A stretch of 59,830 nt of DNA, filler included, from Nitrospinae bacterium RIFCSPLOWO2_12_FULL_45_22 (GCA_001803565.1; 7 parts of 7 records of this genome joined end to end with filler, not necessarily neighbours in it), one strand, 5' to 3'; shown: positions 3,660 through 54,852, counted from the first letter of the whole stretch. The notes: a model not told the origin generated them from the letters alone. Numbers and translations are program-made.

Positions 3660-5168
3660 TCAATTACTTTCCATAAAGCTTTCCAATATCATTTTGCGTA
3701 GAGGGTTTTTTAGTTTTTTTAAGGCCAATTGCTCAATCTGCCTGATCCTTTCCCTACTAACGCCCATGATATTCCCTATCTCCTGGAGGGTATGCTCCGT
3801 TGTACCAGCAATACCGAAACGCATCTTAACCACCTGCTCTTCCCGGGGGGTGAGAGTAGACAGGACTTTCTTTACTTGCCGAGAGAGGTCTAGCCTGATA
3901 ATTGTTTCCGCAGGAGAATCTATCTTCTTATCTCTAACAAAATCCCCTAAACAGCTATCCTCATTACCTACCGGTGTTTCCAGAGAAAGGGGGTTTTTTG
4001 ACATCCTTAAGAGGTCCCGTACCTCCTCTGGAGTCAAATCAATCCCCTTAGCCACTTCGTTAATATGAGGTTCTCTACCCAATCCTTTCCATAGCTGATG
4101 GTACACACCGATTACTTTTTTTATTATTTCGGTTATATATACCGGGACCCTGATAGTTCTCGATTGTTCCGCAATAGCCCTCATTATGGACTGTCTAATC
4201 CACCAGATAGCATAAGTACTAAATTTATAGCCCTTCTTATAATCAAACTTCTCTGCGGCCTTTATTAATCCTATGTTACCTTCTTGAGCCAGATCCAGAA
4301 ATTTTACTCCGTGGTTAGTATAACGCTTTGCAATCATCAATACTAATCTTAGGTTCGACTCTACTAGCTTGTTTTTAGCTTCTCTAGCCTTTGCTTCTGC
4401 CCTCTCTATAGCCACCAGAGTAGCTTCTAAATCTTTTTGATTGGCTTGGTTATTAGAAGAGCCTAGGTTCTGGGTTTTTAATTGAACATTAATTTCTCTC
4501 AATCTCTGGCTAATACGGTCTATTTGTTCTTTCTTAAGATCCAATGCGCGCAATAACGCTAATAATCTCTCTTCGTTGCGCAAAAGGTTTGCCTTAAGCC
4601 TCTTGTATTCTTTTGCATCTCTTGTAGCTCTATTTATAGGCTTATTAATAATAAGCTTTTTTGTTTTATTGCTTTTATAAAGCCGATCTATCTTCCTCAG
4701 CGCTGCCTTAAAACTTTTTATATCCGCTATCCCATCTACTTCAGTTGTCCCAACGAGATTTTCTAAACGCTCCTCCCCCTTCTCGATCTTGTCTCCAAGT
4801 TTCAAAATCTCATCAATGGCATAAGGAGATGATAAAACAGCCCTTCTGATCTCCTCCTCTCCCTCCTCTTTTCTCCTGCCTAATTCACGCTCATCATTCT
4901 TGGTCAGTAGAGGATATTTCATCATTTCCTGAAAGTAGTGCGTATAGGGAGAACCCCTATATCCTTTAACCGGTTCCGCAGGTATGTCTTCAGTATCCAC
5001 CTCTTCGCTATTAGAAAATAATTCAGAAATATCTCCCTTCTCGTCTGACTGAAGCCCCTCTTCGGAAGAGACTTGTTCTTCTAAGTCTTCTTTTTCAGCT
5101 AAGTAAAAACTTATGCCCATATCTTCCTTTTTCCACATCTTATTCTTATTAACTATTCTCCCCCCCAC
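3660..5168 (-). CDS. Sigma-70 family RpoD-like sigma factor, probably a paralog; start uncertain
   Basis: Region 1.2 YPLLTK.DE, region 2 [36 protein letters not shown], region 4 [16 protein letters not shown]; no clear region 1.1. Confidence 0.9.
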
Positions 5169-5424
5169 CTATTATTAAATTTTTTGTTTATTTTTAAAAC
5201 CTTTTCTTATATAATAAACAGAATAGCTTCCCCTGAGACAAAGAAAGCCTGCTCTTTGCAGGCCTGCAAAAGTATTAAAAACACGTACTATAAACTTATA
5301 GTATTATACTACAATTCTTCCTAAGAGTCAACCTTTTATTTAATTTTTTTATTAATTTTTCTCTTCATTTGACTTGCCTTTTGAAAGGAAGAAGTTTTAC
5401 CTAGTTGAAAAGGAGGAAAAATAT

Positions 5425-6740
5425 ATGAATGTCTTCAGGAAGGTCTGGGGTATTTTCTCTTCTAAGTCCTGGTGGTTAATAGGCAACCCTAAAGTAGAAC
5501 AGACACAGCGCTTAGAGATCCTAGACCATGCCCAGGCCATAGTAAAAGCTGCCCAGGATTTAGAGAGTATCGCAGTGGGTTATGCCCCATTAGCAGAGCT
5601 ATTATTCCCCGTAGGAGAGATATTTAAAGATAGGCCGGTAGGATTGGGTAGCCAGCGTATACCCTGGGAGCCCAGTGGGCTTCATACCGGTGGAACTTCG
5701 CCGGTAATCCTGAAAGAAGCAGGGGTTATCTTTGGATTAATCGGACATAGAGAAGCCCGGGATGACCTTGGCGAAGGCCCCCATCTCAATAAACAGATAA
5801 GAATAGCGTTGGATTATGGCATTATCCCTATCTTATGCTGTGGAGAGCCAAAAGGTTCCCTGGTAGAGTCAGAGACTACACGGGAAAAGGCTTTAAAAGC
5901 AGAATTACTACCAGCCCTCGAGGGGTTTACCGCCGAGGAACTCCTTCAGGGACAGCTCACCATAGCTTATGAGCCGGGTCATGTTATTGGGTTGGACCAA
6001 CCTGCAGATATGGGCTATATAAGGAGCGGATTCTCCCTGATAAAAAAGATTTTGCTGAAGCATAATCTGGAAGGCTTAGCTAAAAAGGGGAGACTGCTCT
6101 ATGGTGGTGGGGTAAATTCCGATACTATCCAGCAGGTATGGGGCCTGGATAGGCCGACCAAGGTCTTCTCGGGCGAGAACTGGGCAGGTTTTCTAGTAGG
6201 TAGGGCCAGTGCCTCACCAGACTTTATGGATATGATGGAAAAATGGCAAGCCAAATTAGGCCGGTATCGGGATAGGAGTAAGGTCTTCCTGATGGAGGAG
6301 GATAAGACGGGAGTCGAGAGGTTAGAAATACCTCAGATAGCCCCCCCCCAAAAGAAGGTTAGGGTAGCCGTCTATGGCATAGGCGAAGTGGGAGTTGGGT
6401 TTATAACCTCGGTCTTCAAAGAAGATAAAATAGACATTGTACAGTTGTTCAATATGGAAGTGGATGCAGAGGACATCCGGGCAAGGATATATAAGAGTCT
6501 GTTTATTGATAAAGATAAGGTATTTATAGATGACCACCATGTCGTGATAAAGGATGAGGTCGCCGTGCAAGATGAGATTGAGATTGATGGTGAAATCTTT
6601 AATCTAAGAAGCTTATTGAACAGCATGGTCAATGACCATAGCAAAATAACGAAGGTTTTACGGGAGCAGAAGATGCTGGTAACCCCGGCCCATGACCCCA
6701 GAGAAGCAGCCTCCCAGTTGGTAAAGGATATAGATATTGT
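5425..6740 (+). CDS. Divergent triosephosphate isomerase fused to a GAPDH-like NAD-binding domain (3' truncated at contig end)
   Basis: AGGAGG RBS before ATG 5425; TIM motifs IGNPK, GHREAR, ILCCGE, IAYEP, YGGGV, FLVGRAS; from about 6352 KVRVAVYGIGEVG..DIVQLFN..DAE..HHVVIKD..KMLVTPAHDP..DIDI, resembling the GAPDH N-terminal domain. Confidence 0.75.
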
Positions 6741-7351: not shown

Positions 7352-7435
7352 TTTGAGATTAAGTGAGCCGCAAAGCTCCAAAGAGTCCAAGGGAAGGAAT
7401 GAAGGGTTATGGTTTTTAAAAGGAGGCGATGGTTT

Positions 7436-8191
7436 ATGAAACGTCAAATCAGATATCCAGCCACCATCATTGCTACCATTGTTATTGCCCTGGTAGCTAT
7501 CCCGGCCTTGGCAGTGTTGGGATTTATGTTGCGATATGTATTATTAGCAGCAATACCCATTGTCCTCTTGGGGTATGTCCTGGCCTATGCTGTAAGCCCT
7601 TGGGTAGGGAAAGTCTTTTCACAAGAAGCCCTCGATAGATCTATGTTGAATGGTTTTAAGGTGCCCAAAGGGGTCCTATTCCATCCCTTCCACAGTTGGG
7701 TAAAGTTAGAATCCCCAAAAAAAGCAGCTATTGGGGTAGATGACTTTGTGCAAAAGGTCTTGGGTCCGTTAGAAGCGATTGATACACCTCCGGTAGGGAC
7801 AAGAATCCAGCGAGAAGAAAACCTCTTTCAATTGAGGCGCGGAGACCGAACAGTAGATATAAAATCTCCCATTGCCGGTACCGTCTGTTCAGTCAATGAC
7901 AAGCTTTCTCGGTATCCTACCCTGGTCAACCAGTTCCCTTATGGTAAGGGATGGATAGTAAAACTCCGTCCGGATAATCTTAGTGATGACATAAGAAATC
8001 TTAGGGTAGCAAACGAGGCGCTGAAATGGTTTCGTGAGGAGTTGGAGCGATTTCAATCCCTATTGTCACCCCGTCCGCTCCAGGTCCAAATATTACAGGA
8101 CGGGGGTACAGTAGTGGATGACCTGTGGGCTTACCTAGATAATGACACCTGGTTGTCTATCAAGAAAAACTTTTTTAATAACGCGAGTTAG
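7436..8191 (+). CDS. Membrane-anchored GcvH-fold protein, lipoyl Lys absent
   Basis: Two N-terminal hydrophobic helices; FHPFHSWV..IGVDDFVQK..SPIAGTVCSVN..PYGKGWIVK; QDGG tail; AGGAGG RBS. Confidence 0.8.
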   Translation: MKRQIRYPATIIATIVIALVAIPALAVLGFMLRYVLLAAIPIVLLGYVLAYAVSPWVGKVFSQEALDRSMLNGFKVPKGVLFHPFHSWVKLESPKKAAIGVDDFVQKVLGPLEAIDTPPVGTRIQREENLFQLRRGDRTVDIKSPIAGTVCSVNDKLSRYPTLVNQFPYGKGWIVKLRPDNLSDDIRNLRVANEALKWFREELERFQSLLSPRPLQVQILQDGGTVVDDLWAYLDNDTWLSIKKNFFNNAS

Positions 8192-8307
8192 AAAGAAGAG
8201 CGGGAGTTTTTAGCCTGAAGAAGAAACAGTTCGGAAGCAACTGCTTGATGAAAGAGGATAAATAATAAACCTGAATCCAGTGCAAAATTATTTAGGGAGG
8301 AGCCGAA

Positions 8308-9216
8308 ATGGATCTCAAGAGAAGGGATTTTCTCAAAATAATTGGTTTAAGCACCGGAAGTGGACTTTTAGGTTGGGTGGGGACGGCTAATGCTTATGTA
8401 ACTAAACCTGATCCACATGATTCTGCAGCTATGTTAGTTGATACCACCAGGTGTGTCGGGTGCCGTACCTGTGAGATGGTTTGTGCCGAGGTGAATAATT
8501 TACCAGAGCCAGCTCTTTTGGGCGACGAATCTATCTTTGAGCAAAAAAGAACAACGGAAACATATGCTCACACGGTGGTTAATCGCTATCCTAACCCGAC
8601 AGGTGAGCCGGTATATGTCAAGACCCAATGTCGACACTGCAACGAACCGGCCTGTGCTTCTGCTTGCCTGGTAAAGGCAATGGAAAAGACACCGGAAGGT
8701 CCGGTTGTTTACCATGAGGAAAGGTGTATGGGATGTCGCTACTGCATGGTAGCCTGTCCCTTCTATATCCCAAAATTCGAATGGTCAAAAGCCGTTCCCG
8801 CTGTCCGCAAGTGTATATTTTGTTTTGAACGCCAGAAAGAAGGATTGGAACCCGCTTGTGCGGAGAACTGTCCAGCGGAGGCCCTTAAGTTTGGCAAGCG
8901 GAAAGAACTGCTTGAAATTGCCAGAACCCGCATCTACCAAAATCCTGATCAGTATATTCACCATATCTATGGAGAGCATGAGGTCGGTGGTACGGGGTGG
9001 CTGTATCTCTCCAATATACCATTCGAGCAATTGGGTTTCCGAATGGACCTCGGAACGAGGCCTTATCCAGAATTTACCAAAGGCTTTCTCACAGCAGTGC
9101 CCCTGGTGCTTCTTATTTGGCCAGCTCTGCTCGGAGGTGTATATGCCTTTACAAACCAACGAGAGCAAATGAACAATACAGAAAAAGCTGTTAGCCCAAT
9201 CAAAAAGGAGGTCTGA
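8308..9216 (+). CDS. Tat-exported 4x[4Fe-4S] protein, HybA/HmcB/NrfC-like, with C-terminal membrane anchor
   Basis: KRRDFLK Tat motif; CVGCRTCEMVC, CRHCNEPACASAC, CMGCRYCMVAC, CIFC..CAENC; HIYGEHEVGGT. Confidence 0.9.
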   Translation: MDLKRRDFLKIIGLSTGSGLLGWVGTANAYVTKPDPHDSAAMLVDTTRCVGCRTCEMVCAEVNNLPEPALLGDESIFEQKRTTETYAHTVVNRYPNPTGEPVYVKTQCRHCNEPACASACLVKAMEKTPEGPVVYHEERCMGCRYCMVACPFYIPKFEWSKAVPAVRKCIFCFERQKEGLEPACAENCPAEALKFGKRKELLEIARTRIYQNPDQYIHHIYGEHEVGGTGWLYLSNIPFEQLGFRMDLGTRPYPEFTKGFLTAVPLVLLIWPALLGGVYAFTNQREQMNNTEKAVSPIKKEV

Positions 9217-9218
9217 TC

Positions 9219-10451
9219 ATGGCCGAATACATTCAATATCCAGAGAAAATATATACTCCTCATTTATGGATTAGGGAAAAATTCCTTATGGGGATGAGTT
9301 TGTCCGCCTATATAAAGAAGCAGTTTACCCCGTTCAATGTTGTAGCTGGTCTCATCCTCCTTGTAGGACTGCCTTTTATCGCTCTCCGCTTCTCTCAGGG
9401 GCTTGCAGCGGTGACGAATGCCAATAGCGACTATCCCTGGGGGTTCATTCTTAGTTTCGGACTTTTTGCCGGGGTCCCTTTAGCCGCCGGAGGATATGTC
9501 CTTGCCTCTACTGTATACCTCTTCGGGCTTAAACAATATCATCCCCTACTCCGCCCTGCTATACTTACAGGCTTTCTCGGTTATTTCTTTGCAGTTGTGT
9601 ATCTACTCATTGACCTGGGACGTCCCTGGCGACTCCCCTATCCCATGTTTATTTACTACGGTCCCGCGTCGGTCCTGTTTCTGGTGGCCTGGCATGTGGC
9701 CCTATACCTATCGGTTCAATTTCTCGAGTTCTGTCCGGCTATATTCGAGTGGCTCGGTACAGAGAGATTCCGGCGGTGGGCCATGAGAATAACCATAGGG
9801 GCCACCATCTTCGGTGTGATCCTCTCGACCCTTCACCAGTCTGCCCTCGGTGCCCTCTTCCTCCTCGCACCAGGGAAACTTCATCCACTTTGGTACTCAC
9901 CGTTGATTCCAGTATTTTTCTTCATCTCAAGCATCTTCGCGGGACTTTCAGTGGTGATTGCTGAAAGTACCCTATCTAGCCGTTTCTTTAAAGACAAAGC
10001 TGACTACCACTATCTAGCGAGTCTCGACAACCTCACCCTTGGCCTTGGTAAAGCAGCTTCGGTTGTCCTCTTTACCTACTTTGGCCTGGAGGTAATTGGT
10101 GTTGCCCACGGGAACCACTGGGCCCTCCTGGGTACACCTTTTGGCTATTGGTTCCTCATAGAGATACTTATGTTCGTCCTTCTTCCTTGCTTTCTCTTTG
10201 CCTTTGGGACTCAGAAGAAGAAGGTAGGCCTTGTCCGCTTTACGGCTTTTCTAACTATCACAGGTATTATTTTCAACCGGCTTACGGTGGTACTTATTGC
10301 ATTAAACTGGAATCTGCCGCACCACGAAATTCCTTATTGGAAGGAATTTGTTATTGTTTTAACTATCATTACCATTCACTTGCTCACGTTCCGTTGGATC
10401 GTTAACCGGATGCCTGTCCTCCGGGAACACCCCGATTATAAAGGCATGTAG
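9219..10451 (+). CDS. NrfD-family integral membrane subunit, HybB/HmcC-like
   Basis: YPWG, DLGRPWR, LSTLHQSALGALF, LHPLWYS; about 10 transmembrane helices. Confidence 0.9.
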   Translation: MAEYIQYPEKIYTPHLWIREKFLMGMSLSAYIKKQFTPFNVVAGLILLVGLPFIALRFSQGLAAVTNANSDYPWGFILSFGLFAGVPLAAGGYVLASTVYLFGLKQYHPLLRPAILTGFLGYFFAVVYLLIDLGRPWRLPYPMFIYYGPASVLFLVAWHVALYLSVQFLEFCPAIFEWLGTERFRRWAMRITIGATIFGVILSTLHQSALGALFLLAPGKLHPLWYSPLIPVFFFISSIFAGLSVVIAESTLSSRFFKDKADYHYLASLDNLTLGLGKAASVVLFTYFGLEVIGVAHGNHWALLGTPFGYWFLIEILMFVLLPCFLFAFGTQKKKVGLVRFTAFLTITGIIFNRLTVVLIALNWNLPHHEIPYWKEFVIVLTIITIHLLTFRWIVNRMPVLREHPDYKGM

Positions 10452-10469
10452 AAGGGAGGAGATATTATT

Positions 10470-11177
10470 ATGGAACATCTATTTATGACTTCAGTCAAAG
10501 GAATAGAATATATAATAGCGGTGATATTTCTCTTTACCTTCATTGTTTTTTGGCGCGTATTAAATATTGGTGGGATTCCGGCCATGGAGTCCTTATCGGT
10601 TGCAGCCGGTGGAGTTGTAAAAAAGATAGGGGATATGGTTGATTGGTTTTTGGTTCCCGATCGGCTATATTTTCACCCCGGACATGCATGGGTAAAAGTA
10701 GAGGATGGTGATGTGGTGCGGGTTGGAATGGATGATTTTGCCCAAAAACTGGTAGGTAAGATTGACGCCCTCAACCTACCGAAGGTCGGCTCCACTGTGA
10801 GTCAAGGAGAAAGAGGGTGGACAGTCCATTTAGGATCAAAATCCGTTGATCTTCTTTCCCCAATAGATGGAAAGATCGTTGCCGTTAATGAGGCACTATT
10901 TAATGCACCGAAGCATATAAATGAGGCCCCTTATGAGGAGGGGTGGTTGATGAAGGTTAAAGTCCCGAGACTTTCGGCAAACTTAAAGAATCTCCTGTCG
11001 GGCAACCTGGCCAGGAGATGGATGGAAGAGGTGAGTGGTAATCTACGTTTAAGATTGGGGGCCAATCTTGGCTTGGTGTATCAAGATGGTGGTTTACCCG
11101 TTGAAGGGCTAGCCAAAAACTTGGATCGGGATAAATGGGATGAGATAGCAAAAGAATTTTTTCTGACTCTAGATTAA
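10470..11177 (+). CDS. Membrane-anchored GcvH-fold protein, no Lys at the canonical lipoyl position
   Basis: N-terminal KGIEY plus one TM helix; YFHPGHAWV..VGMDDFAQKLVG..SPIDGKIVAVN..PYEEGWL; VYQDGG tail. Confidence 0.8.
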   Translation: MEHLFMTSVKGIEYIIAVIFLFTFIVFWRVLNIGGIPAMESLSVAAGGVVKKIGDMVDWFLVPDRLYFHPGHAWVKVEDGDVVRVGMDDFAQKLVGKIDALNLPKVGSTVSQGERGWTVHLGSKSVDLLSPIDGKIVAVNEALFNAPKHINEAPYEEGWLMKVKVPRLSANLKNLLSGNLARRWMEEVSGNLRLRLGANLGLVYQDGGLPVEGLAKNLDRDKWDEIAKEFFLTLD

Positions 11178-11253
11178 TCAAGGGGGGTATGGAACTAACT
11201 CTCGTTTTTTAACTGGCAGAGCTGATTCTGCCACTGATAAGGAGGTGGCTATC

Positions 11254-11649
11254 ATGCAACGGTATTATGGCAGTACCAAGGTCAAGGCAGGGTTTTATTG
11301 GAACCCAAGAGCCTGGGATATAGCGCCTATACCAGGCAAAGGAGGGATATTACCGGGAGATATGGATACTTCTTATTTGAGGGTCCCTATGGTATTGATG
11401 CTTTTTGGCGCCCCGGTGGCAGGTCTGTTTTATGTGATCACCCTCCCAATTTACCTACCCTTAATCATTCTTGGCATAGCCTTTAACTTCCTTGGACAGA
11501 AAATTTACCAGTTGGTCCCAAAACCGGCATCCAAGTTAGTAGACAAATCAAGAAGTGATAATGGGGAAGTAATTTTTGACTCTCATCTGGGTATGGTATA
11601 TCCAGATGGTGGTTTACCTATGGAAGATGAGGCTGAAGATGAACGCTGA
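11254..11649 (+). CDS. Small membrane protein of unknown function with a C-terminal YPDGG motif
   Basis: GGAGG RBS; KVKAGFYWN..GGILPG, hydrophobic hairpin, tail HLGMVYPDGGLPME. Confidence 0.7.
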   Translation: MQRYYGSTKVKAGFYWNPRAWDIAPIPGKGGILPGDMDTSYLRVPMVLMLFGAPVAGLFYVITLPIYLPLIILGIAFNFLGQKIYQLVPKPASKLVDKSRSDNGEVIFDSHLGMVYPDGGLPMEDEAEDER

Positions 11650-12367
11650 AAGAAAGCGGATGCCTATTGTTCCTAATGGGGATTTAGAGTGTGTCTGGAT
11701 GTGGGCAGGGATTGTTACATATAAATTATGTGATTGCAACTATGAATGTGAGCACTGCAGTTTTGATAGGGCCATGAAAGAATGTGATTCGGTCCCTTTC
11801 CATGGGGAAGTAGGGGGTTACAAGCTCTGCCGCACCTTATTTTACCATTCAAGCCATACCTGGGCAGGGGTAGAAGAAGGTGGACATCTCCGTATTGGTC
11901 TGGATGATTTTGGTCAGAACATCCTGGGACCAATTCAAAGGATCTCCCTTCCAAAATTAGGAGCTAGAATAATGGAGGGGAGCATTCAGGTAAGAGGCCG
12001 GGGCATAGATGTTCCTCTATGCCCGCCTGCTGAAGGGTATATTGTTGAGGTGAATAAGCAATTGCTGACTTTTCCTGCCTTGATGAATAGTTACCCCTAC
12101 GATAAAGGATGGGTTGTCCTCATTCGGCCCGTTCATCTTTTGAAGAGCCTGAGGCAACTTTTTTATGGCTATCAAGCGGAAGAATGGTATCGGAGAGAGG
12201 TCTCCCGATTGGGAAGCGCCATTGCCCAGGTAACGCATCTACCGCCATCCAGGGTAGGCCCTACCATGCAGGATGGAGGCATTCCAATATTACAGATCCT
12301 CGATGCGATAGAGCCGAATGAAGCCTCGAAGATTATAAGACAATTTTTCATCCGTAACTGCAATTAG
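11639..12367 (+). CDS. Soluble GcvH-fold protein with N-terminal Cys-rich module, lipoyl Lys absent
   Basis: CVWMWAG..YKLCDCNYECEHCSFD; FYHSSHTWA..IGLDDFGQ..PYDKGWVV; TMQDGG tail. Confidence 0.8.
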   Translation: MNAERKRMPIVPNGDLECVWMWAGIVTYKLCDCNYECEHCSFDRAMKECDSVPFHGEVGGYKLCRTLFYHSSHTWAGVEEGGHLRIGLDDFGQNILGPIQRISLPKLGARIMEGSIQVRGRGIDVPLCPPAEGYIVEVNKQLLTFPALMNSYPYDKGWVVLIRPVHLLKSLRQLFYGYQAEEWYRREVSRLGSAIAQVTHLPPSRVGPTMQDGGIPILQILDAIEPNEASKIIRQFFIRNCN

Positions 12368-25425: not shown

Positions 25426-26025
25426 TTGCTTTCGCCGGAAGAACGGAGCATAATATATCAGAGACTTGCGCAGGTATTCTCTTATCCTGGCGAGGAAGAT
25501 TATGCCGGGTTAGTTGATGATAGCTACCTGGAGCCCTTTTTATTACTGGGCAGGGATGTGGAGTCCCTCCTTTCCAAAACCAGTTACCCGGTATCGTTAG
25601 AAGAATTACAACAGCAATATACTGGCTTGTTCGATGTAGGCAGGGGTGGCAGCGGCCCTCCTTGCCCCTTGTATGAAGGCCCTTACCGGCCGGATTGGGG
25701 CCGGAGTAAGATTTTTGAAGAACTTTTACGTTTTTATGATTTCTTTGGCCTGGAGCTATCCCCTGATAGCCGAGAACTACCAGACCATTTGACTGTAGAG
25801 TTAGAGTTCATGCATTTTCTTACCTTCCAGGAGGCCAGCTCTGAAGACCCTGCACCCTTTCAGCGTGCTCAGCGGGACTTTCTTAATCGTCATCTCGTTA
25901 ACTGGGTACCAATGCTCCGCCAGAGGATAGATGAAGTGGCTATATCTGACTATTTTAAGGCTCAAGGATTTATTTTGGAGTCTTTTATCCGGACTGAGAT
26001 AATAACCCTGCAGGATATAACCTAG
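25426..26025 (+). CDS. TorD/DmsD/EbdD-family molybdoenzyme maturation chaperone
   Basis: YTGLFD..PCPLYEG, FYDFFGL, ELPDHLTVELEFMHFL, FLNRHL..W. Confidence 0.9.
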   Translation: MLSPEERSIIYQRLAQVFSYPGEEDYAGLVDDSYLEPFLLLGRDVESLLSKTSYPVSLEELQQQYTGLFDVGRGGSGPPCPLYEGPYRPDWGRSKIFEELLRFYDFFGLELSPDSRELPDHLTVELEFMHFLTFQEASSEDPAPFQRAQRDFLNRHLVNWVPMLRQRIDEVAISDYFKAQGFILESFIRTEIITLQDIT

Positions 26026-26240
26026 TACTTCGTTACATTAAAATGTTTCCAATGCGTAACCAAGTCTTTGCCACGAAGTCACAAAGACACCAAGGAAACG
26101 TAAAACGCAAAGCTAAAAGTGCAAAGCTGAGGAATAATTACCTTAATTTTACACTTTGCATTTTAAGCTTTGAGCTTTTTAGTGCCTTTGTGGCTAATAC
26201 AAGTTTTTATTGTATACTTTTTTATGAAACGCTCTACTAG
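26022..26240. mobile_element. MITE-like element, family B (CTAG-flanked), with nested palindromes
   Basis: CTAG at both ends; imperfect IR TACTTCGTTACATTAAAATGT versus TAGAGCGTTTCATAAAAAAGT; the internal AAAGCTAAAAGTGCAAAG module recurs near 42028. Confidence 0.6.
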
Positions 26241-26306
26241 TTAGTTATAAAGTGTTAGTAGTAGTAATTGTTAACGACAACTGATACTGATGATATGGAG
26301 GTGGCC

Positions 26307-29165
26307 ATGTCAGGCAATGGATTCAATAGAAGGGAATTTTTAAAGAGTACCGGGTTGATGGTGGGCTCTCTCTATTTAAGTAACCTAAGGATAAGGGAGG
26401 TATATGCTCAGACCCAGCCTGCCGCCTATCCCTACCGGAGTTGGGAAGACCTTTATAAGAAGCAATGGACCTGGGATAAGGTAGTAAAAGGCACCCATTA
26501 TGTGAACTGCTGGTACCAGTCGGCCTGCTGCTGGGATGTTTATATTAAAGATGGTATTGTGATCCGGGAAGAGCAGACCGCAGAATATCCCCCCATTTCA
26601 CCTGACGCTCCTGATCCCAATCCCCGCGGCTGTCAGAAAGGGGCTTGTTACAGCCACCGGATGTATGACCCAACCCGGCTCAAATATCCTTTGAAGCGAG
26701 TAGGTGAGAGGGGTGAAGGGAAATGGAAGCGGGTATCCTGGGACGAGGCCCTGAGTGAGATAGCCGATAGGATGGTAGATATTATTGCCCAAGAAGGCCC
26801 GGAGACTATAGTGTGGGATATAGGCACCAATTTCAGCATCGGCTCCCAGAGTGTGGGCCTGACCCGATTGGCCCTATCGTTAGGAACCCCGCTATTAGAT
26901 ATGAATCCCGAGATAGGCGATGGTCATCAGGGTATGGCTATCACTATGGGCAAGATAATCAATGAGGGGTCAGGTGATAACTGGTTTTATACTGACCTGT
27001 TCCTTATCTGGGGTGGCAACCCTACCTATACCCATATACCTAACTCCCACTATTATATTGAAGGGCGGTATAATGGCGCAAAGATTGTTACTATCAGCCC
27101 CGACTATAGCCCTTCAGCTCTCCATGCCGACCTCTGGATCCCCATAAATGTGGGTACGGATGCTGCCTTGGCCCTCTCGCTCGCCCATATAATTGTGAAT
27201 GAGAAGCTTTACCATGCAGCCTTTCTGAAAGAACAGACCGATATGCCTCTCCTGGTAAGGGATGATAACCGGCTTTTCTTACGCGAAAAGGACCTGAAAG
27301 AAGGTGGAAAAGACGATGTCTTTTACCTATTTGATCTTACCAGTAAAGCCATAAAGGAAGCCCCCAAGCTCTCTCTGGCCTTAAATGGCATAGACCCAGC
27401 CCTGGAAGGGGAATACGAAGTAGAGACTTTGCAGGGCAAGGTAAAGGTCAGGCCGGTCTTTGAGCTACTCAAAAAGCGGCTGGAGGAATATTCCCCTGAG
27501 AATGCCTCAACGATTACTGGTATAAATCCTAAGGTAATAAAAGACCTGGCCCATGACATCGCCAAGGCCAAGTCAGTATGTAACGTAACCCAGAGTAATT
27601 TCTCTAAGTTTTATCATGTGGCGCTACTGGAGCGGGCTGAGTTATTAGTAGGCGCTTTATGTGGTCATTTTGGTAAGCGTGGTAGTGGTTTTCGGGGCTT
27701 CCCGTTCCTTATGCCTGATGCCTTTGAGACCTTTCCTTTCATGAAGAAGCCCGGTGTAGAAGGGGCTAAGGAGTTTGAAGCCTGGTTTGAGCAGCAATTC
27801 AAGCCTTTCAAAGATGCCGGCTATACCGATGAGATGTTGGTCTACGAATTTATCCGGCAGGCTTATTCACAAGGGTTCTGGACCTCGGCGACCCTCTTCT
27901 GGTATATCCATGGAGGATTAAAGGAGCTTTCTGGCAGGTCTAAAGAATGGGACCGCTACCTGAAACGAGATGTAGATGACTACCTGAAAGAGTCCTTTGA
28001 AAAAGGCTGGCAGATGATTGTACCAGCACCAGAAAAAGAACCCCGGGGCCTATTCGAATATGGCGGCAATATATTACGCCGGGTAAGGGGTTATACTAAG
28101 CTCATAGATACCCTGTACCCCAAACTAAAACTAGCAGTGACTATAGATTGGCGCATGAGCACCACGGGCCTCTATTCTGATTTTGTCTTGCCGCTAGCTG
28201 GTTGGTATGAAAAAGAGGATATTAAATGGGTAACACCCCTTCAACCCTTTGTCCATATCACTGACCGGGCTGTGGAACCATTGCACGAATCTAAGACTGA
28301 CTGGGAGATATTTTGCCTGCTAGCCAGGAAGGTCGAGGAACAGGCCAAGCAGAAAGGGATCGAGACTTATAAAGTGAGGGATGAAGAACGGAGATTCGAT
28401 ACTGTTTACGGTGCCTTGACCTTTGGGGGTTATTACAAAGATAAAGACGACGCAAAGCTGGCCGATGATTATATGAAGATCTCTACCAACACCAAAGGGG
28501 TAACCTGGCCGGAGTTACGCAAAAAAGGGTTTGCTCCTTTCAGTGGGGTCGGGAGGAGTCCCGGGACTATCGGTAACGCTACCGATATTAAACCCAACGA
28601 GACTATCGTGCCCCTGACCTGGCATACGGACAAGAAAGTCCCTTATCCTACCCTTAGCCGGCGTATGCAGTTCTATATTGACCATGAGCTATTCCTTGAT
28701 CTGGGTGAGGAGCTACCCGTTCACAAAGAACCACCTAAAGCCGGTGGTAATTACCCATTAGTAGTGACCGGTGGGCATACTCGCTGGAGTATCCACTCCT
28801 CCTGGCGGGATAGTCAGCACATGCTCCGCCTTCAGCGCGGCGTACCAGTCATGTATATAAGTGCTGTAGATGCCCAGAAGCGTGGGATAAAGGATGGGGA
28901 AGAGGTAGAGGTTAAGAACGACCTAAATTCCTTCCGGATCCATGCCAAGGTATCTCCGGCTGTGAGGCCAGGCCAGGTGATAATCTATCATGCCTGGGAG
29001 AATTATCAGTTCAAAGATCGTAAGCTCTTCCAGAACCTGATGCCATCACCCTTGAATCCTATTACTTTGGCTGGTGGTTATTATCATCTGAGGCCCATGT
29101 TCCTCGCTCTGCATCCACCTCAGAACGACCGAGATACCAGAGTAGAGGTAGTAAAGCTTACTTAA
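26307..29165 (+). CDS. Tat-exported type II DMSO-reductase-family alpha subunit, steroid C25/ethylbenzene dehydrogenase-like
   Basis: NRREFLK; GTHYVNCWYQSAC..NPRGCQKG (His-ligated FS0); EIGD Asp ligand; WGGNP.YT.IPN.HY..EGRY.G; HTRWSIHS; GGAGG RBS before ATG 26307. Confidence 0.85.
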   Translation: MSGNGFNRREFLKSTGLMVGSLYLSNLRIREVYAQTQPAAYPYRSWEDLYKKQWTWDKVVKGTHYVNCWYQSACCWDVYIKDGIVIREEQTAEYPPISPDAPDPNPRGCQKGACYSHRMYDPTRLKYPLKRVGERGEGKWKRVSWDEALSEIADRMVDIIAQEGPETIVWDIGTNFSIGSQSVGLTRLALSLGTPLLDMNPEIGDGHQGMAITMGKIINEGSGDNWFYTDLFLIWGGNPTYTHIPNSHYYIEGRYNGAKIVTISPDYSPSALHADLWIPINVGTDAALALSLAHIIVNEKLYHAAFLKEQTDMPLLVRDDNRLFLREKDLKEGGKDDVFYLFDLTSKAIKEAPKLSLALNGIDPALEGEYEVETLQGKVKVRPVFELLKKRLEEYSPENASTITGINPKVIKDLAHDIAKAKSVCNVTQSNFSKFYHVALLERAELLVGALCGHFGKRGSGFRGFPFLMPDAFETFPFMKKPGVEGAKEFEAWFEQQFKPFKDAGYTDEMLVYEFIRQAYSQGFWTSATLFWYIHGGLKELSGRSKEWDRYLKRDVDDYLKESFEKGWQMIVPAPEKEPRGLFEYGGNILRRVRGYTKLIDTLYPKLKLAVTIDWRMSTTGLYSDFVLPLAGWYEKEDIKWVTPLQPFVHITDRAVEPLHESKTDWEIFCLLARKVEEQAKQKGIETYKVRDEERRFDTVYGALTFGGYYKDKDDAKLADDYMKISTNTKGVTWPELRKKGFAPFSGVGRSPGTIGNATDIKPNETIVPLTWHTDKKVPYPTLSRRMQFYIDHELFLDLGEELPVHKEPPKAGGNYPLVVTGGHTRWSIHSSWRDSQHMLRLQRGVPVMYISAVDAQKRGIKDGEEVEVKNDLNSFRIHAKVSPAVRPGQVIIYHAWENYQFKDRKLFQNLMPSPLNPITLAGGYYHLRPMFLALHPPQNDRDTRVEVVKLT

Positions 29166-33863: not shown

Positions 33864-34470
33864 CTTTTTTCTCATGGAAGAAGAAAAGGACCCTATCAAA
33901 GAACTTCGTCTGGGCCAGAAGATCAAGGGCCTGCGGAGCAGTATGCGCTTATCTTTGAAGGAAGTGGCAGAAAAGGCTGGCCTGACAGAGCCGGTCCTGT
34001 CCCAAATAGAAAACGATATTGTACCACCTACTATCGCCGCATTAGCCAGGATAGGCCGGGCCCTCAAGGTAGAATTAGGCTATTTTTTCCAGAAGGAACC
34101 CTTAGGTGGTGAGATAGAAGTAGTCCGGCGCGACGAGCGGAAGATCGTCCGAAGACAACGCACCTTAGGTTCAACCCCCCTCAGTTATTCTTACCAGTCC
34201 CTGGCTTATCGCAAGACCTGCCGGAATATGCAGCCCTTCCTCATCGAATTCGATCTAGATATCCAGGAGGAGATACCCAGTTTGAGCCACGAGGGGGAAG
34301 AGTTTCTCTACCTGCTGGAGGGAGAGTTGGAATTCCGTACGGAAAAAGAGGGCATAATCCTACATGAGGGAGACAGCCTCTATTTTGATTCCCAGATATC
34401 CCATGCCTTTTATGGCCGGGGGAAGAAAAAGCCGAGGGCTATAGTTGTTATCTTTACCCCCAGAGACTAG
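33853..34470 (+). CDS. XRE-family HTH regulator with cupin domain
   Basis: LKEVAEKAGL....LSQIEND..PT; HEGEEF.YLLEG..GDSLYFDS..SH. Confidence 0.9.
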   Translation: MLSSFFLMEEEKDPIKELRLGQKIKGLRSSMRLSLKEVAEKAGLTEPVLSQIENDIVPPTIAALARIGRALKVELGYFFQKEPLGGEIEVVRRDERKIVRRQRTLGSTPLSYSYQSLAYRKTCRNMQPFLIEFDLDIQEEIPSLSHEGEEFLYLLEGELEFRTEKEGIILHEGDSLYFDSQISHAFYGRGKKKPRAIVVIFTPRD

Positions 34471-34477
34471 CAGCTAC

Positions 34478-35041
34478 ATGGTTGAGATCAGGATTCATGG
34501 CCGTGGTGGCCAGGGAGCAGTAGTAGCCTCAAAGATACTGGCTATCGCCTTTTTCAAGGAAGGTAAGTATGTCCAGTCTTTCCCGGCTTTCGGGGTGGAG
34601 CGTAGAGGGGCGCCAGTAGCTGCTTTTGTCCGTACAGGTCACGAATTTATCTATTTGAGGACCGAGATCTATCAGCCCGATCATGTCATAGTCCTGGACC
34701 CTACCCTCATTGGCCCTATAGCCGTTACTGGTGGGTTACGGGACGGGGGATGGGTCTTGATCAATTCTGAAAAAGAACCACACCAATACCATAACCTCAG
34801 CCCTTCCCATTATTATCGGATAGCTACCGTAGACGCTAACCATATTGCTACCCAACACCATTTAGGCTCTCCTACTAATCCCATAGTCAATACTGCTATC
34901 CTGGGGGCCTTTGCCCGCATCAGTAATCTGGTTAGTATTGAGTCAGTAGAAGAGGCCATTAAAGAAGAAGTACCAGTAGATAGAGAAGAGAATGCCAGGG
35001 CTGCCCGTAACGCCTACCTCAAGGTGGTCTATGAGGGATGA
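34478..35041 (+). CDS. 2-oxoacid:acceptor oxidoreductase gamma subunit (PorC-like)
   Basis: EIRIHGRGGQGAV, FGVERRGAPV, NTAILGA. Confidence 0.92.
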   Translation: MVEIRIHGRGGQGAVVASKILAIAFFKEGKYVQSFPAFGVERRGAPVAAFVRTGHEFIYLRTEIYQPDHVIVLDPTLIGPIAVTGGLRDGGWVLINSEKEPHQYHNLSPSHYYRIATVDANHIATQHHLGSPTNPIVNTAILGAFARISNLVSIESVEEAIKEEVPVDREENARAARNAYLKVVYEG

Positions 35042-36782
35042 AGGAAAGGAAATTCCAAAAAAGCTACCGGGCATGATTGTTTCCTTTGCTGACATGGCCT
35101 GGAATAAGACCGGGAGCTGGCGCTATCTAAAGCCCCGCTATGAGAATAAGACCCCACCGTGTTCTGCGGGCTGCCCGGCTGGCGAGGATATTGAGGGTAG
35201 TTTACGGCTATTAGCGGGAGGGAAAATCCTTCGGGCCTGGGCCCTTATCAAGATTGAGAACCCCTTTCCCAGGGTCTGTGGCCGGGTCTGCTTCCATCCC
35301 TGTGAAGCCCATTGCAACCGTGGAGAATATGATCGGTCTATCGCCATCAATCGCCTGGAGCGCTTTATTGCCGATGCTGCTACCCAAAAGAACCGCAGGG
35401 TTCCTAAGCCCAAAATAAGGCGGCGGGAAAGGATTGCTGTGATAGGGGCAGGCCCCGCAGGGTTGAGCTGTGCCTATCACCTAACCCGCCTGGGCTATCC
35501 GGTTACGGTCTTTGAAGCTTTGCCTCAAACAGGCGGGATGCTCCGGGTGGGTATCCCGGCGTTCCGCTTATCCCGTGAAGTATTGGATGCCGAGTTAGCC
35601 GAACTGCTGGCTATGGGGATAGAGATAAAAACCGGAGTCCGGTTAGGGCATAATCTTTTTTGGACAGACCTCAAGGGCTTCAAGGCCGTTTTCTTAGCCA
35701 CTGGGGCTCATATCAGCCGGAACCTGGCTATCCCGGGCGAGGATATTCCCGGGGTATATCGGGGCTTAGAATTCCTGGGCCAGTTAAATAGTGGACAAAA
35801 GATATCGTTAGGTAAGCGGGTTGCTATTATAGGTGGTGGAAATACCGCTATTGATGTGGCCCGGTCAGCCTTGCGGCTCCAGAGCGAACCCCATATCCTG
35901 TATCGGCGTACCAGAAACGAGATGCCAGCCTTTAATGAAGAGACAATAGAAGCAGAGAGGGAAGGGGTAGAATTCTCTTTCCTTACCGCCCCGGCCCGAA
36001 TATTGGCCCGTGCTGGCCAGGTAAGCGGGATAGAATGCCTAAGGATGGAGTTAGGGGAGCCGGATGAGAGTGGTCGGCGGAGGCCGGTACCGGTCAAGGG
36101 TTCTAATTTTATTATAGAAGCTGACAATGTTGTGGCGGCCCTGGGCGAGGAGCCGGAGCTGTCTTATTTAGACCAGGAAATAAAGGTTGTTAGGGGCCTG
36201 GTTGCTACTGATGCCTGGCAGCGTACTTCTAAACTCCGAGTCCTTGCTGGCGGGGATAATACCTCTTTTCGCCGGACGGTAATAGATGCCATCGCTGCCG
36301 GGAAAAAGGCCGCCTTAGCTATTGACTGTTTTATTCAAGAGAGGGGTCTAGAGGCCCTCTGGCCCAAAATACAGATAGGAGCCAATGGCGCTTTCTCTAT
36401 GCGGCAATATCTCAAGATAAAGGATAGAGGGAAAACGCGCTCGGCAGAGATAGTAAATCTTTCGCAGCTTAATCTGGATTATTTCGCCCCAGCCGAACGG
36501 ATCAAGCGACCGGCATTAGCTTTAGATGAAAGGAGGCAAAGCTTCAAAGAGGTAAATAAAACTATTAGCCAGGAGTTGGCCGGGCAAGAGGCTGGGCGCT
36601 GTTTTCATTGTGGCGTATGTAACAACTGTGAAAACTGCTACCTTTACTGTCCTGAAGGGGCTATTTACCCGCAAAGAACTGGCCTGGGCTACCGGATTGA
36701 TTATGACTATTGTAAGGGTTGTGGGGTTTGTATGGAAGAATGTCCCCGCAATGCTATCACCTTAGAAGAGGAAGAGCGATGA
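35031..36782 (+). CDS. GltD/DsrL-like FAD/NAD(P) oxidoreductase with PorD-like N- and C-terminal ends
   Basis: NKTGSWR (PorD-like start); PPCSAGCP, CGRVCFHPCE..C, GAGPAG, GGGNTA, YRRT; C-terminal CNNCENCYLYCP and IDYDYCKGCGVCMEECP. Confidence 0.85.
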   Translation: MRDEGKEIPKKLPGMIVSFADMAWNKTGSWRYLKPRYENKTPPCSAGCPAGEDIEGSLRLLAGGKILRAWALIKIENPFPRVCGRVCFHPCEAHCNRGEYDRSIAINRLERFIADAATQKNRRVPKPKIRRRERIAVIGAGPAGLSCAYHLTRLGYPVTVFEALPQTGGMLRVGIPAFRLSREVLDAELAELLAMGIEIKTGVRLGHNLFWTDLKGFKAVFLATGAHISRNLAIPGEDIPGVYRGLEFLGQLNSGQKISLGKRVAIIGGGNTAIDVARSALRLQSEPHILYRRTRNEMPAFNEETIEAEREGVEFSFLTAPARILARAGQVSGIECLRMELGEPDESGRRRPVPVKGSNFIIEADNVVAALGEEPELSYLDQEIKVVRGLVATDAWQRTSKLRVLAGGDNTSFRRTVIDAIAAGKKAALAIDCFIQERGLEALWPKIQIGANGAFSMRQYLKIKDRGKTRSAEIVNLSQLNLDYFAPAERIKRPALALDERRQSFKEVNKTISQELAGQEAGRCFHCGVCNNCENCYLYCPEGAIYPQRTGLGYRIDYDYCKGCGVCMEECPRNAITLEEEER

Positions 36783-37951
36783 CCCGGAGGGTGATTATGG
36801 GCAACCATGCCGTCTCTTATGGGGTGATGCTTGCACGGGCTCAAGTGATTGCTGCTTATCCCATAACACCTCAGACCCAGGTAGTAGAATTCCTCTCAGA
36901 GATGTGTGCTGATGGCCGCTTAGCAGCCAAGTTTATTAAGGTAGAATCAGAACATTCTGCCCTGGCCTGTTGTATCGGTGCCGCTACCGCAGGATGCCGC
37001 ACTTTCACAGCCACCTCCGCCCAGGGGCTAGCCCTGATGCATGAATTACTCCATTGGGCCACCGCTGCCCGATTACCCATTGTTATGGCTAATGTCAACC
37101 GGGCATTGGCACCCGGCTGGAATATCTGGTGTGACCAGACAGATTCCTTGGCCCAGAGAGATACTGGCTGGATGCAGTTTTATTGCGATAGCAATCAGGA
37201 GATATTGGATAGCGTTTTGCTGGCCTATAGAGTAGCAGAGAAGAGCCTCTTGCCTGCTATGGTAGTATATGATGCCTTTTATCTATCTCATACTTCTGAG
37301 CCAGTAGATATACCCGAGCAAGAAGAGGTAGATGCCTTTCTACCACCTTTTCAACCGCCATATTTTCTGGATACAGATAATCCCCGTACCTTTTATCCCC
37401 TCTTAGGGCCAGAATATTATATGGAGTTTCGCTACCAGATGGAACAAGCTATGGAGAAGGCATTAAAGGCCTTTAATGAAGCGGGCACAGAATTAAAAAC
37501 CATCTTCGGGCGGGAATATCATCCTATTGAATATTATCGCTGCGAGGATGCTGAATTGATCCTGCTCACGGCTGGTAGCGCGGCTAGTACTGCCCGGGTT
37601 GTCATTGACCAGATGCGGGTAAAAGGCTATCCAGTAGGGTTGATGAAGATTAGATTATTCCGCCCTTTCCCAGGGCAAGAGCTGCGTGAGGCCCTGAGAA
37701 GTGTAGCTAAAATAACTGTGCTGGATCGAAACCTGTCCCCAGGAATTGGCGGAATCTTTGCCCAGGAACTGAAGGCTGTCCTGGTTAATAGCCCCAAACA
37801 TCCCGCAGTCTTTAGCTTTATTGCGGGCCTGGGCGGTAGGGATATTACCCCTCAGATCATCCAACAAGCCCTGGAAATAACCCTGGCAAATGACAGACCA
37901 GTAGCACACAGCGTATGGCTGGGCTTACAAGAAGAGATGATTAATAAATGA
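36779..37951 (+). CDS. 2-oxoacid:acceptor oxidoreductase alpha subunit (PorA-like)
   Basis: AAYPITPQT, ESEHSA, TATSAQGL, GLGGRD; ATGA overlap with the upstream gene. Confidence 0.92.
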   Translation: MTRRVIMGNHAVSYGVMLARAQVIAAYPITPQTQVVEFLSEMCADGRLAAKFIKVESEHSALACCIGAATAGCRTFTATSAQGLALMHELLHWATAARLPIVMANVNRALAPGWNIWCDQTDSLAQRDTGWMQFYCDSNQEILDSVLLAYRVAEKSLLPAMVVYDAFYLSHTSEPVDIPEQEEVDAFLPPFQPPYFLDTDNPRTFYPLLGPEYYMEFRYQMEQAMEKALKAFNEAGTELKTIFGREYHPIEYYRCEDAELILLTAGSAASTARVVIDQMRVKGYPVGLMKIRLFRPFPGQELREALRSVAKITVLDRNLSPGIGGIFAQELKAVLVNSPKHPAVFSFIAGLGGRDITPQIIQQALEITLANDRPVAHSVWLGLQEEMINK

Positions 37952-39186: not shown

Positions 39187-39585
39187 TTACAACCAATCTA
39201 TTTCTACGAGTTCTTCAACTTTTTTGAATTCAGGGTCTCCGGTAGCAATAGCGGCTTTTTCCTTTAAAGCGGTAGCGACAGCGAAGCAATCGGCATAAGA
39301 AATAGGGTATTTGGCCTTGATCCTTGAAGCTTTTATTATTTGCTCAAAGGAGTTAGAGAGGATCTCTATTGGTAGACTTGGAAGGATAACCTCTATAAAA
39401 TAGTCAGCATAGCCAGAGTCTCGCTCTCTTGCAAGGATATAATAAGTCTCCCCGATATTCAACTCGTTCATTATAAGAGGATTATCCTCAGACGAAGATA
39501 ATAGATCCTTTACCCTTTGATATTTATCTTCTTTTTTTAGATAGGCGAGAAGGCTGTAAGAATCGAGCAATTTCTTTTTCTTCAC
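39187..39585 (-). CDS. vapC: PIN-domain toxin
   Basis: LLDSY.LLAYL, NIGE.YY, ISYADCFA, TGDPEF. Confidence 0.88.
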   Translation of the reverse strand: MKKKKLLDSYSLLAYLKKEDKYQRVKDLLSSSEDNPLIMNELNIGETYYILARERDSGYADYFIEVILPSLPIEILSNSFEQIIKASRIKAKYPISYADCFAVATALKEKAAIATGDPEFKKVEELVEIDWL

Positions 39586-39811
39586 GCTCCAATTCCTCCT
39601 TACGCGCTTTTAAAAGGGCATCTACCAGGGAAGAGCCCTTCTCGAAAATGCCACAAAAGGCTTCAACGGGATTCTCCGGTAGTGGTATAATCTCAAGATG
39701 ATCATTGGCCAGTTTTAAAAGCACCCTCTGTTTCTGTTTTATATGGAGAGCTTCTCTTATTTCCTTAGGAATTACCACCTGCCCTTTGGAGGATACTGTA
39801 GCTATTGCCAT
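39524..39811 (-). CDS. AbrB/MazE-type antitoxin
   Basis: TVSSKGQVVIPKEIREAL; overlaps the toxin gene. Confidence 0.88.
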   Translation of the reverse strand: MAIATVSSKGQVVIPKEIREALHIKQKQRVLLKLANDHLEIIPLPENPVEAFCGIFEKGSSLVDALLKARKEELEREEKEIARFLQPSRLSKKRR

Positions 39812-53800: not shown

Positions 53801-54852
53801 AAAAAAAGAGTGGACTAGGGCTCACTGGAGAGGTAAAGGGTAACCGCTTAACCCCAGAGATAAAGCTTGAGCTGATGGAACTGATAGCTTCTCTTCCCTG
53901 GCCAGGTAACAAGAGTTGCCGGGTATTGAAGTTAAAACGGGGCCGATATTGGCGATGGAAGAATAGATATGATGGGACTCTGTCTTCTTTGGAGGACAGG
54001 GCCCCTATCGCCCAGATTCGTCCCCATGCCCTTTTACCAGAGGAAAGGCAAGAGATCATCTGCTTTGCCTTAGATAACCCTAAAGAAAGACATAGGAAAC
54101 TAAGCTTTCTCATGATTGATCAGGATATCGGCTATTTCAGCCCCTCTACGGCTTACCAGGTCTTAAAGAAGGGGGGGGCCAAACCCTGGGTATCTCTTAA
54201 AAAGCCTATGAGAAGACAAGACATTGAAGTTACAGGCCCTAACCAGGTCTGGTACATAGATATTACCTATCTTAAGGTCAACGGGAGAAATTGGTATCTC
54301 ATACCGGTTCTGGATAAATACTCTCGATTGATAGTGTACTGGGAACTCTGTTGGACGATGACTGCTCATGATGTTAAACGGATAGTAGACTTTGCCCTGG
54401 AAAAGGAAGGGCTTCATCTCCAGGAACAAAAGCCTAAGATCATCAGCGATAATGGTACCCAGATGGTAGCCAAAAGCTTCAAAAAATTCCTTAAAGACCT
54501 GGGGATTAAACATATCCGTATCGCCTATCGCCACCCTGAAAGTCAAGGGCGGATCGAGGTCTTCTTTAAGACCTTAAAATACGAATGCTTCTATCATGGG
54601 GAATACCAAAATGCTCATGAAGCCCATAGGGACATAGAAGCCTTCATTCACTATTATAACTACCAAAGATTACATCAGGGAATAGGTTTTGTTACCCCTT
54701 ATCAAAAACATATTGGCCGGGCTGATGCTATAATTGCAGCTAGAAAGGCCAAACTCGCCCTGGCCAAAGAATTACGGAAAGCCCTCAATAGGGGAGAAAA
54801 GGTTAAAGCGAACCCCATGCCAGAGATGGTCGGTCATAGTGTCTTAATTTAA
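53797..54852 (+). CDS. Transposase OrfB (rve/DDE integrase core)
   Basis: NQVWYIDITY, DKYSR, SDNGTQM, QGRIE.FFKTLK.E, YN..RLH..IG..TP; frame is open from the T3A9 run. Confidence 0.88.
   Translation, partial: LKKKSGLGLTGEVKGNRLTPEIKLELMELIASLPWPGNKSCRVLKLKRGRYWRWKNRYDGTLSSLEDRAPIAQIRPHALLPEERQEIICFALDNPKERHRKLSFLMIDQDIGYFSPSTAYQVLKKGGAKPWVSLKKPMRRQDIEVTGPNQVWYIDITYLKVNGRNWYLIPVLDKYSRLIVYWELCWTMTAHDVKRIVDFALEKEGLHLQEQKPKIISDNGTQMVAKSFKKFLKDLGIKHIRIAYRHPESQGRIEVFFKTLKYECFYHGEYQNAHEAHRDIEAFIHYYNYQRLHQGIGFVTPYQKHIGRADAIIAARKAKLALAKELRKALNRGEKVKANPMPEMVGHSVLI

Follow-up and report, generated by a model that had tools for sequence, protein, structure and literature searches.

A divergent bacterial triosephosphate isomerase fused in frame to a glyceraldehyde-3-phosphate dehydrogenase-like half

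We analysed a 59,830-nucleotide stretch of DNA from Nitrospinae bacterium RIFCSPLOWO2_12_FULL_45_22 (GCA_001803565.1; hereafter the window), which is made up of seven contigs joined by N44-TTAATTAATTAA-N44 spacers. The gene at positions 5425..6740 (+) was found to encode the N-terminal part of a protein in which a triosephosphate isomerase (TIM for the domain, TPI for the activity) continues in frame into glyceraldehyde-3-phosphate dehydrogenase (GAPDH). The in-frame TIM-GAPDH fusion is certainly real. Judging from its sequence, the protein is probably a bifunctional TPI/GAPDH that supplies the TPI activity of the cell and adds a second GAPDH, possibly able to use NADP(H). A preliminary description of this DNA had proposed a bacterial TPI-GAPDH-type fusion that may act on a different sugar phosphate or have a regulatory role; the fusion itself was borne out by relatives of 701-714 amino acids that contain both TIM and Gp_dh_C, whereas the other sugar phosphate and the regulatory role are not the readings that we favour.

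The partial coding sequence comprises 438 codons, begins with the ATG at 5425 and remains open to the contig end, with an open frame through 6740 and N from 6741, in agreement with the preliminary description. The gene ends the first contig (1-6740) and is followed by an artificial inter-contig spacer (6741..6840; N44, TTAATTAATTAA, N44) that has no biological meaning. A Shine-Dalgarno-like GGAGG, read from the sequence at 5412..5416 (+), lies 8 bases before the ATG, and the start is supported by the close relative P0002, a 703-amino-acid protein with the same MNVFRK N-terminus that is 99% identical to the window protein over residues 1-439. The TIM barrel domain occupies residues 17-272 (5473..6240, +) and is followed by an inter-domain linker (residues ~273-308; 6241..6348, +), which holds a run of nine C at 6341-6349. 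The N-terminal dinucleotide-binding part of the GAPDH-like half, delimited by alignment with ordinary GAPDHs, covers residues 309-438 (6349..6738, +). All motifs quoted earlier for this protein (GNPK, GHREAR, AYEPGHVIGLD, YGGG, VGRAS, VRVAVYGIGEVG, DIVQLFN and KMLVTPAHDP..DIDI) were found in the translation. The region of the catalytic Cys lies past the contig end, as had been noted, and tblastn with a full-length relative against the window detected no further part of the gene in the remaining six contigs, nor any other TIM or GAPDH. A promoter and terminator scan of 5100-5500 gave consensus matches only. Twenty DNA runs contained the stretch; they come from 16 studies whose samples were soil, groundwater and sediment, and no RNA dataset was listed among the sequencing runs that carry it.

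In a search of 5.8 billion proteins, the last 154 residues of the window protein matched four proteins of 701-714 amino acids, each carrying TIM plus Gp_dh_C. P0002 was 98% identical over these residues, and P0003, P0004 and P0005 were 83%, 89% and 66% identical to P0002 over the full length. Within the P0002 cluster, 11 of the 12 members have 703 amino acids, and the twelfth, a partial record of 439 on a contig of 6,740 bases, is evidently the window protein itself. Full-length relatives span 701-719 amino acids, and fourteen full-length fused cluster representatives from several sources were available (P0002-5, P0168-170, P0006, P0171, P0008, P0172, P0009, P0012 and P0016); their linkers differ in length and sequence, and the frame is kept in all of them. 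Furthermore, the contigs of four out of four runs over 5300-6740 showed substitutions and no inserted or deleted letters, and pieces in all four bridged the run of nine C, so that the indel which the preliminary description had named as a possible separator of two genes was absent. The idea that assembly or a homopolymer error in the C-run merged two adjacent genes draws on one JGI assembly in which the gene appears as two calls, P0174 and P0188; these presumably lie on one contig, as the longest contig given for each has 4224 bases. The frame of P0174 is lost directly after 'EIPP' in the linker, at the site of the C-run (window ~6330-6350), and P0188 begins at a Met inside the Rossmann domain (residue 344). 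Because the second part would be without GxGxxG, this split looks like a homopolymer error or a pseudogene and not like the natural state. Against the fourteen in-frame representatives with their different linkers, the four runs free of indels and the loss of GxGxxG in the split form, an artefactual merger is scarcely credible. As a separate observation, a second full-length copy, P0187 (701 amino acids), is 83% identical over the 438 residues of the window protein (5425-6738) and has the same locus-tag prefix as the 439-amino-acid partial record, and run X3 contains the stretch 6385-6528 in two variants. These data point either to two paralogues in the genome or to a bin that combines two related strains.

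The Pfam profile PF00121 matched residues 17-272 of the window protein with an E-value of 5.7e-35 and 121.4 bits (cut-off 20.1), far beyond chance, and the PDB match to TIM had an E-value of 9.9e-24. Residue numbers are given here in the conventional schemes of TIM and GAPDH and were placed by motif in both halves. The catalytic residues N10, K12, H95, E97 and E165 are all present in the window protein; in the alignment, K12, H95 and E165 were kept in 14 of 14 fused members, and N10 and E97 in 13 of 14. A barrel that keeps the catalytic Asn/Lys, His/Glu and Glu in GNPK, GHRE and AYEP, and whose phosphate-gripping loops are altered, had been read from the sequence before, and comparison with ordinary TIMs column by column confirmed it. 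In the clade of the window protein, loops 6, 7 and 8 read GHVIGLD, YGGG and GRAS, as opposed to VWAIGTG, YGGS and GGAS in ordinary TIMs, while the P0008/P0172 clade has retained a near-canonical loop 6 (GVVGTGK). The TIM half thus shares the barrel fold and the five catalytic residues with ordinary TpiA (PF00121; NF000722) but differs from it by W11P, S96R, V167G, W168H, T172L, G173D, S211G and G233R, by about 9 extra residues in the loop before strand 8 and by an N-terminal helix. An AlphaFold2 model of P0002, built from a 61-row alignment, had a mean predicted local distance difference test score (pLDDT) of 90.1 and consisted of two well-folded halves and a disordered linker; pLDDT was mostly above 90 in the TIM half and below 50 at linker residues 281-295.

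No GAPDH model in Pfam or NCBIfam matched the truncated protein of the window, and we assign its C-terminal part to GAPDH because the full-length relatives match GAPDH. Gp_dh_C (PF02800) scored 30.1-31.9 bits (cut-off 24.4) in all three full-length relatives searched, and Gp_dh_N (PF00044) was seen in one of the three, with 13 bits (cut-off 31.7). Of the two profiles suggested beforehand as a check, TIM matched the window protein, and Gp_dh_N stayed below its cut-off in the relatives. The GAPDH-I model TIGR01534 matched residues 362-633 of the full-length relatives (E 5e-28), and solved GAPDHs matched them with E-values of about 1e-20 (PDB match at 4.1e-21). In addition, Foldseek searches with the C-terminal half of the model returned GAPDH chains as all of the best matches, with near end-to-end coverage (E 4.6e-24; about 400 aligned columns; target-normalised TM 0.82-0.90). 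We therefore identify KVRVAVYGIGEVG... in the window as the dinucleotide-binding domain of a GAPDH, and the Rossmann part belongs to GAPDH by both profile and fold, not to another Rossmann family as the preliminary description had allowed for. Homoserine dehydrogenase was the candidate returned for the last 130 residues taken as a Rossmann part; it was rejected, since its E-value of 0.065 is at chance level and the full-length relatives match GAPDH by profile and fold. The ESM Atlas gave general GAPDH clusters only.

Alignment with ordinary GAPDHs showed that GIGEVG replaces GFGRIG, as previously noted, and that the Rossmann domain contains an insertion of 35 residues (379-413; 6559..6663, +), shorter than the approximately 45 first estimated. 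This insertion is specific to the Nitrospinota-like clade: it is gapped in six of six ordinary GAPDHs and in P0006, P0008, P0009, P0012 and P0013-15, and it is modelled as extra beta strands with a pLDDT of about 81-84. The full-length homologs, which the preliminary description had proposed to look for, allowed us to follow the catalytic residues. S148, C149, H176, T179, G209, R231 and N313 were kept in 14 of 14 fused members, T208 was invariant together with G209, and Lys stood at the position of R195, a residue of the inorganic phosphate site, in every one; T179 and R231 belong to the Ps site. The catalytic residues of both halves have been kept even between members with only 29-40% identity. 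D181 is replaced by Ser or Thr. Position 32 lacks the NAD-specifying Asp; different alignments place Asn or Met there, and that of HMMER pairs the position with an Ala of chain 8wwz (titled B. subtilis GapB). Position 187 is basic, with Lys or Arg in most members. Compared with type I GAPDH (TIGR01534; 8wwz and B. stearothermophilus 1gd1), the whole fold is matched with TM up to 0.90, and GxGxxG, S148-C149-T150, H176, T179, T208-G209, R231, N313 and Y317 are kept; a non-acidic position 32 is common to the fused half and 8wwz. The fused half differs from type I GAPDH by R10 to Glu, R195 to Lys and E314 to Val, by a shorter S-loop that is devoid of R194 and R197, by the 35-residue Rossmann insertion and a second insertion, about 20 residues long, ahead of the last strand, and by the attached TIM.

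Two unfused relatives of the GAPDH-like half, P0007 (393 amino acids) and P0011 (409 amino acids), are nested in the Nitrospinota-like clade. Both have lost G9/G12, S148, C149, H176, T179, K195 and N313, and keep R231 and the clade-specific insertion; from these sequences, they look like catalytically dead paralogues. The residues that are kept in the fused members and lost in P0007 and P0011 mark positions that are under selection in the fused proteins. A search of the carrier genome described below detected no counterpart of P0007 of its own; the matches were to the fusion and the ordinary gap only.

One carrier of the fusion, the Nitrospinota metagenome-assembled genome G001 (fusion locus L001), could be compared with its relatives. 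PF00121 matched G001 in one place only, the fusion, with 131 bits. Each of the 39 other relatives among the 40 searched has an ordinary TIM, which gave a single match of 224-356 bits in 38 of them and two adjacent pieces (137 and 100 bits) in G022. Furthermore, the order of genes is gap-pgk-tpiA-secG in G003 and gap-pgk-tpiA in G002, while the corresponding cluster of G001 (contig C59, locus L016, 1-2628) is gap-pgk-secG with tpiA absent and 72 bases between pgk and secG. The ordinary gap of G001 has been kept and contains AVND, that is, Asp32. G001 also has the DHAP (dihydroxyacetone phosphate)-using GpsA, an aldolase-like gene and enolase, and must therefore interconvert glyceraldehyde 3-phosphate (GAP) and DHAP. 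With no other TIM found in G001, tpiA gone from its place between pgk and secG and users of DHAP present, the TPI activity of G001 most likely comes from the TIM half, tpiA having been displaced. It is quite improbable that the fusion is an accessory isozyme whose carriers also have an ordinary tpiA that the incomplete assembly has missed. G001 is 1.5 Mb in size and may be incomplete, PF00342 was not found in it, and a tpiA elsewhere is conceivable, as one relative (G010) carries the gene away from gap/pgk. However, pgk and secG stand 72 bases apart precisely where relatives carry tpiA, an ordinary TIM was detected in all 39 other relatives, and gap, pgk, enolase, gpsA and the aldolase-like gene were all found in G001. 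Beyond secG, the gap-pgk-secG cluster of G001 continues with a MobA-like and a MobB gene.

According to the reading that we favour, the gene would encode a bifunctional enzyme of about 703 amino acids. Its N-terminal half would be a divergent, catalytically complete TPI that interconverts DHAP and GAP, and a very divergent type-I-like GAPDH, separated from it by some 35 residues of flexible linker, would act on the same triose phosphate by the Cys/His thioacyl mechanism. Alongside the ordinary NAD-type gap, this half would serve as an additional GAPDH that interconverts GAP and 1,3-bisphosphoglycerate; GAP is its likely natural substrate because the thioacyl machinery and the C3-phosphate site have been kept. 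It may accept NADP(H), because position 32 has no acidic residue and position 187 is basic. The engineering work behind PDB entry 1dbv reportedly linked positions 32 and 187 to cofactor choice. One site might hand GAP to the other directly, with gluconeogenesis as the most plausible direction; an additional GAPDH with an anabolic role, tied to TPI, would then pass GAP straight on to DHAP.

Several points weigh against this reading. In the TIM half, the TIM equivalog models, NF000722 and TIGR00419 among them, all matched far below their cut-offs, for example with 79.9 bits (cut-off 293) and 45.5 bits (cut-off 130.6), and the changes W168H, T172L, G173D, S211G and G233R of the window clade fall in the phosphate-gripping loops; in the P0006/P0171/P0009 clade, G171 and the YGG motif have changed as well. 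In the GAPDH half, TIGR01534 reached 98.2 bits (equivalog cut-off 367.2), Glu replaces R10 of GFGRIG in every member, and the S-loop, which is two to three residues shorter, has lost R194, R195 and R197; it was modelled with lower confidence (pLDDT 68-75). The copy in the window ends before the catalytic Cys, so that the catalytic residues of the GAPDH half are those of its relatives, and we infer both the channelling and a preference for NADP(H). The argument for displacement of tpiA comes from a single, possibly incomplete genome, in which PGI (PF00342) was not found, and gap-pgk-tpiA synteny is not universal, as tpiA lies away from gap/pgk in one of three relatives inspected (G010).

Another reading, in line with the preliminary description, is that both halves are active on another ketose/aldose phosphate pair, for example tetrose phosphates, in a two-step isomerase-dehydrogenase of some other pathway. 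TIM loops 6, 7 and 8, whose role is to grip the phosphate and cover the bound substrate, have changed, the arginines of the inorganic phosphate site of GAPDH are replaced, D181 is Ser/Thr, and every equivalog model remains far under its cut-off; moreover, the TIM family includes L-erythrulose-1-phosphate isomerase (chain 11ef, E 4.3e-14), and one source labels a member 'erythrose-4-phosphate dehydrogenase', among other names. We nevertheless regard this as unlikely. Ordinary TIMs match the TIM half better than the erythrulose-phosphate isomerase does (9.9e-24 versus 4.3e-14), GAPDH-I scores 98 bits versus 60 for the erythrose-4-phosphate dehydrogenase model, and the near-canonical loop 6 GVVGTGK persists in the P0008/P0172 clade. 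No catabolic operon or transporter adjoins the gene in three lineages, and G001, with its DHAP users, has neither another TIM that we could find nor tpiA in the usual place. A bolder version, to which we give little credence, holds that the protein is not glycolytic at all: its remodelled phosphate grip and Lys-based anion site would belong to a dedicated two-step isomerase-dehydrogenase for another phosphorylated sugar. The carrier lineage would then have lost classical TPI or would make DHAP by another route. In a milder form of this version, the enzyme would be an NADPH-driven anabolic 'triose-phosphate synthase' that converts 1,3-bisphosphoglycerate to DHAP without releasing GAP, and in some genomes it would be partnered by the catalytically dead paralogues.

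We also think it doubtful that the TIM half is a working TPI joined to a GAPDH-like half that is non-phosphorylating, yielding 3-phosphoglycerate directly, or that serves mainly as an oligomerisation or regulatory module. The missing R194, R195 and R197, the short S-loop with its low pLDDT, the ordinary gap already next to pgk in the genome, and the dead paralogues P0007 and P0011, which show that the scaffold can persist without catalysis, are all in keeping with such a role. However, Cys149, His176, Thr179, Arg231, Asn313, Thr208/Gly209 and the Lys at 195 are invariant in all fourteen fused members at 29-40% identity, and the invariant positions are those lost in the dead paralogues, which argues for catalysis with an anion site.

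The family is rare. HMMER searches over 1.84 billion representatives gave 7,884 matches at E<=0.001 and only 12 at E<=1e-30; beyond those 12 were ordinary TIMs and GAPDHs, at 1e-28 and weaker. Among 400 relatives of G001, only G001 itself has a member. A scan of genome contigs yielded 12 loci, with L001 as the sole fusion and the other 11 as matches of 28-34% identity, and a metagenome scan with a narrower alignment yielded three loci, all close relatives. In the tree of the GAPDH part, the 20 family rows fell on one side of a branch with SH-aLRT support of 100, and a total branch length of about 2.1 separated them from 12 ordinary GAPDHs, the gap of G001 and the GAPDH part of P0018, a 573-amino-acid TPI-GAPDH fusion with the canonical motifs AYEPIWAIGTGK, YGGS, GINGFGRIGR and SNASCTTNC. 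In the tree of the TIM part (FastTree), which also included 121 ordinary TIMs, the 16 family rows grouped as a single clade with a support of 99. Both trees contain long branches for P0012 and P0016, and their inner order is unsure. Each half forms one long-branched clade and has a single origin; the fusion therefore arose once, long ago, and independently of the canonical-type fusion. P0018 matches the window protein with an E-value of 4.4e-28, on a level with TIMs that stand alone, and its GAPDH part lies among ordinary GAPDHs, set apart from the family with branch support of 100; a common origin of P0018 and the bacterial family is thus not supported by the GAPDH tree.

TPI-GAPDH fusion proteins of mitochondria are described from stramenopiles and other eukaryotes in the available part of PMC3527533, where the same two consecutive glycolytic enzymes occur in the same order, with TPI N-terminal and GAPDH C-terminal. 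That part mentions bacteria and prokaryotes as background only, and the available part of PMC12525153 has neither 'fusion' or 'fused' nor 'Nitrospin' in its text. In the open literature searched (subscription journals were outside its scope), we found eukaryotic TPI-GAPDH fusions only and no bacterial one. Compared with the eukaryotic fusion, the present one has a bacterial host, highly divergent halves and no targeting peptide. To our knowledge, TPI-GAPDH fusions have been described from eukaryotes alone, and it was there that they led to the idea of glycolysis in mitochondria; in the bacterial family, the same two enzymes were joined independently in the same order. The familiar bacterial TIM fusion is PGK-TPI (NF010569), in which TIM is likewise fused to a neighbouring enzyme of lower glycolysis. 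Among the NCBIfam models, NF010569 in fact scored highest for the TIM half (96.7 bits; cut-off 883), but in that protein the partner is PGK and TIM is C-terminal, and no PGK domain is found in the fusion described here.

The family offers a natural experiment on whether the joining of both steps gives a selective advantage, for example by passing on or shielding the reactive GAP. It also shows the extent to which active sites can drift, as TIM loop 6 and the arginine-rich S-loop of GAPDH, both textbook features, have changed with the catalytic residues kept. Should the host have no TPI besides the fusion, a core glycolytic gene has been displaced by a divergent fused homologue. Current genome annotation would conceal such a displacement; members are annotated in the sources as 'triose-phosphate isomerase', 'glyceraldehyde 3-phosphate dehydrogenase' or 'hypothetical protein'.

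Comparison of three lineages revealed no conserved neighbour of the fusion gene and no functional hint, which fits a stand-alone gene of central metabolism. A divergent sigma-70 gene lies upstream in the window and in locus L020, and in L021 the fusion has genes for a ribonucleotide reductase and a LonB-like protein downstream. The fusion gene is flanked by TauE and PAPS reductase in L019 and by SpoVG and a sigma-70 gene in L001.

Elsewhere in the window, the second contig encodes three GcvH-like proteins (PF01597) of 235-263 amino acids with long N-terminal extensions (7409-8188, 10470-11174 and 11576-12364; the locus as a whole spans 7409-12364, +). Interleaved with them are genes for a 4Fe-4S NrfC-like protein (8308-9213) and for a membrane protein resembling NrfD (9219-10448). 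It is unusual for lipoyl-carrier-like proteins to be paired with a membrane module that interacts with quinones. Subunits of 2-oxoacid:ferredoxin oxidoreductase (POR gamma, a Pyr_redox_2/Fer4_20 protein and a POR_N alpha subunit) are encoded at 34445-37948 (+) and 25426-29162 (+), as are a molybdopterin oxidoreductase of 965 amino acids and a NarJ-like chaperone; these genes are consistent with an anaerobic or microaerobic metabolism, possibly of the reverse tricarboxylic acid type. The window also contains an rve-type integrase/transposase (53875-54849, +) and a PIN/MazE-like toxin-antitoxin pair (39187-39808, -).

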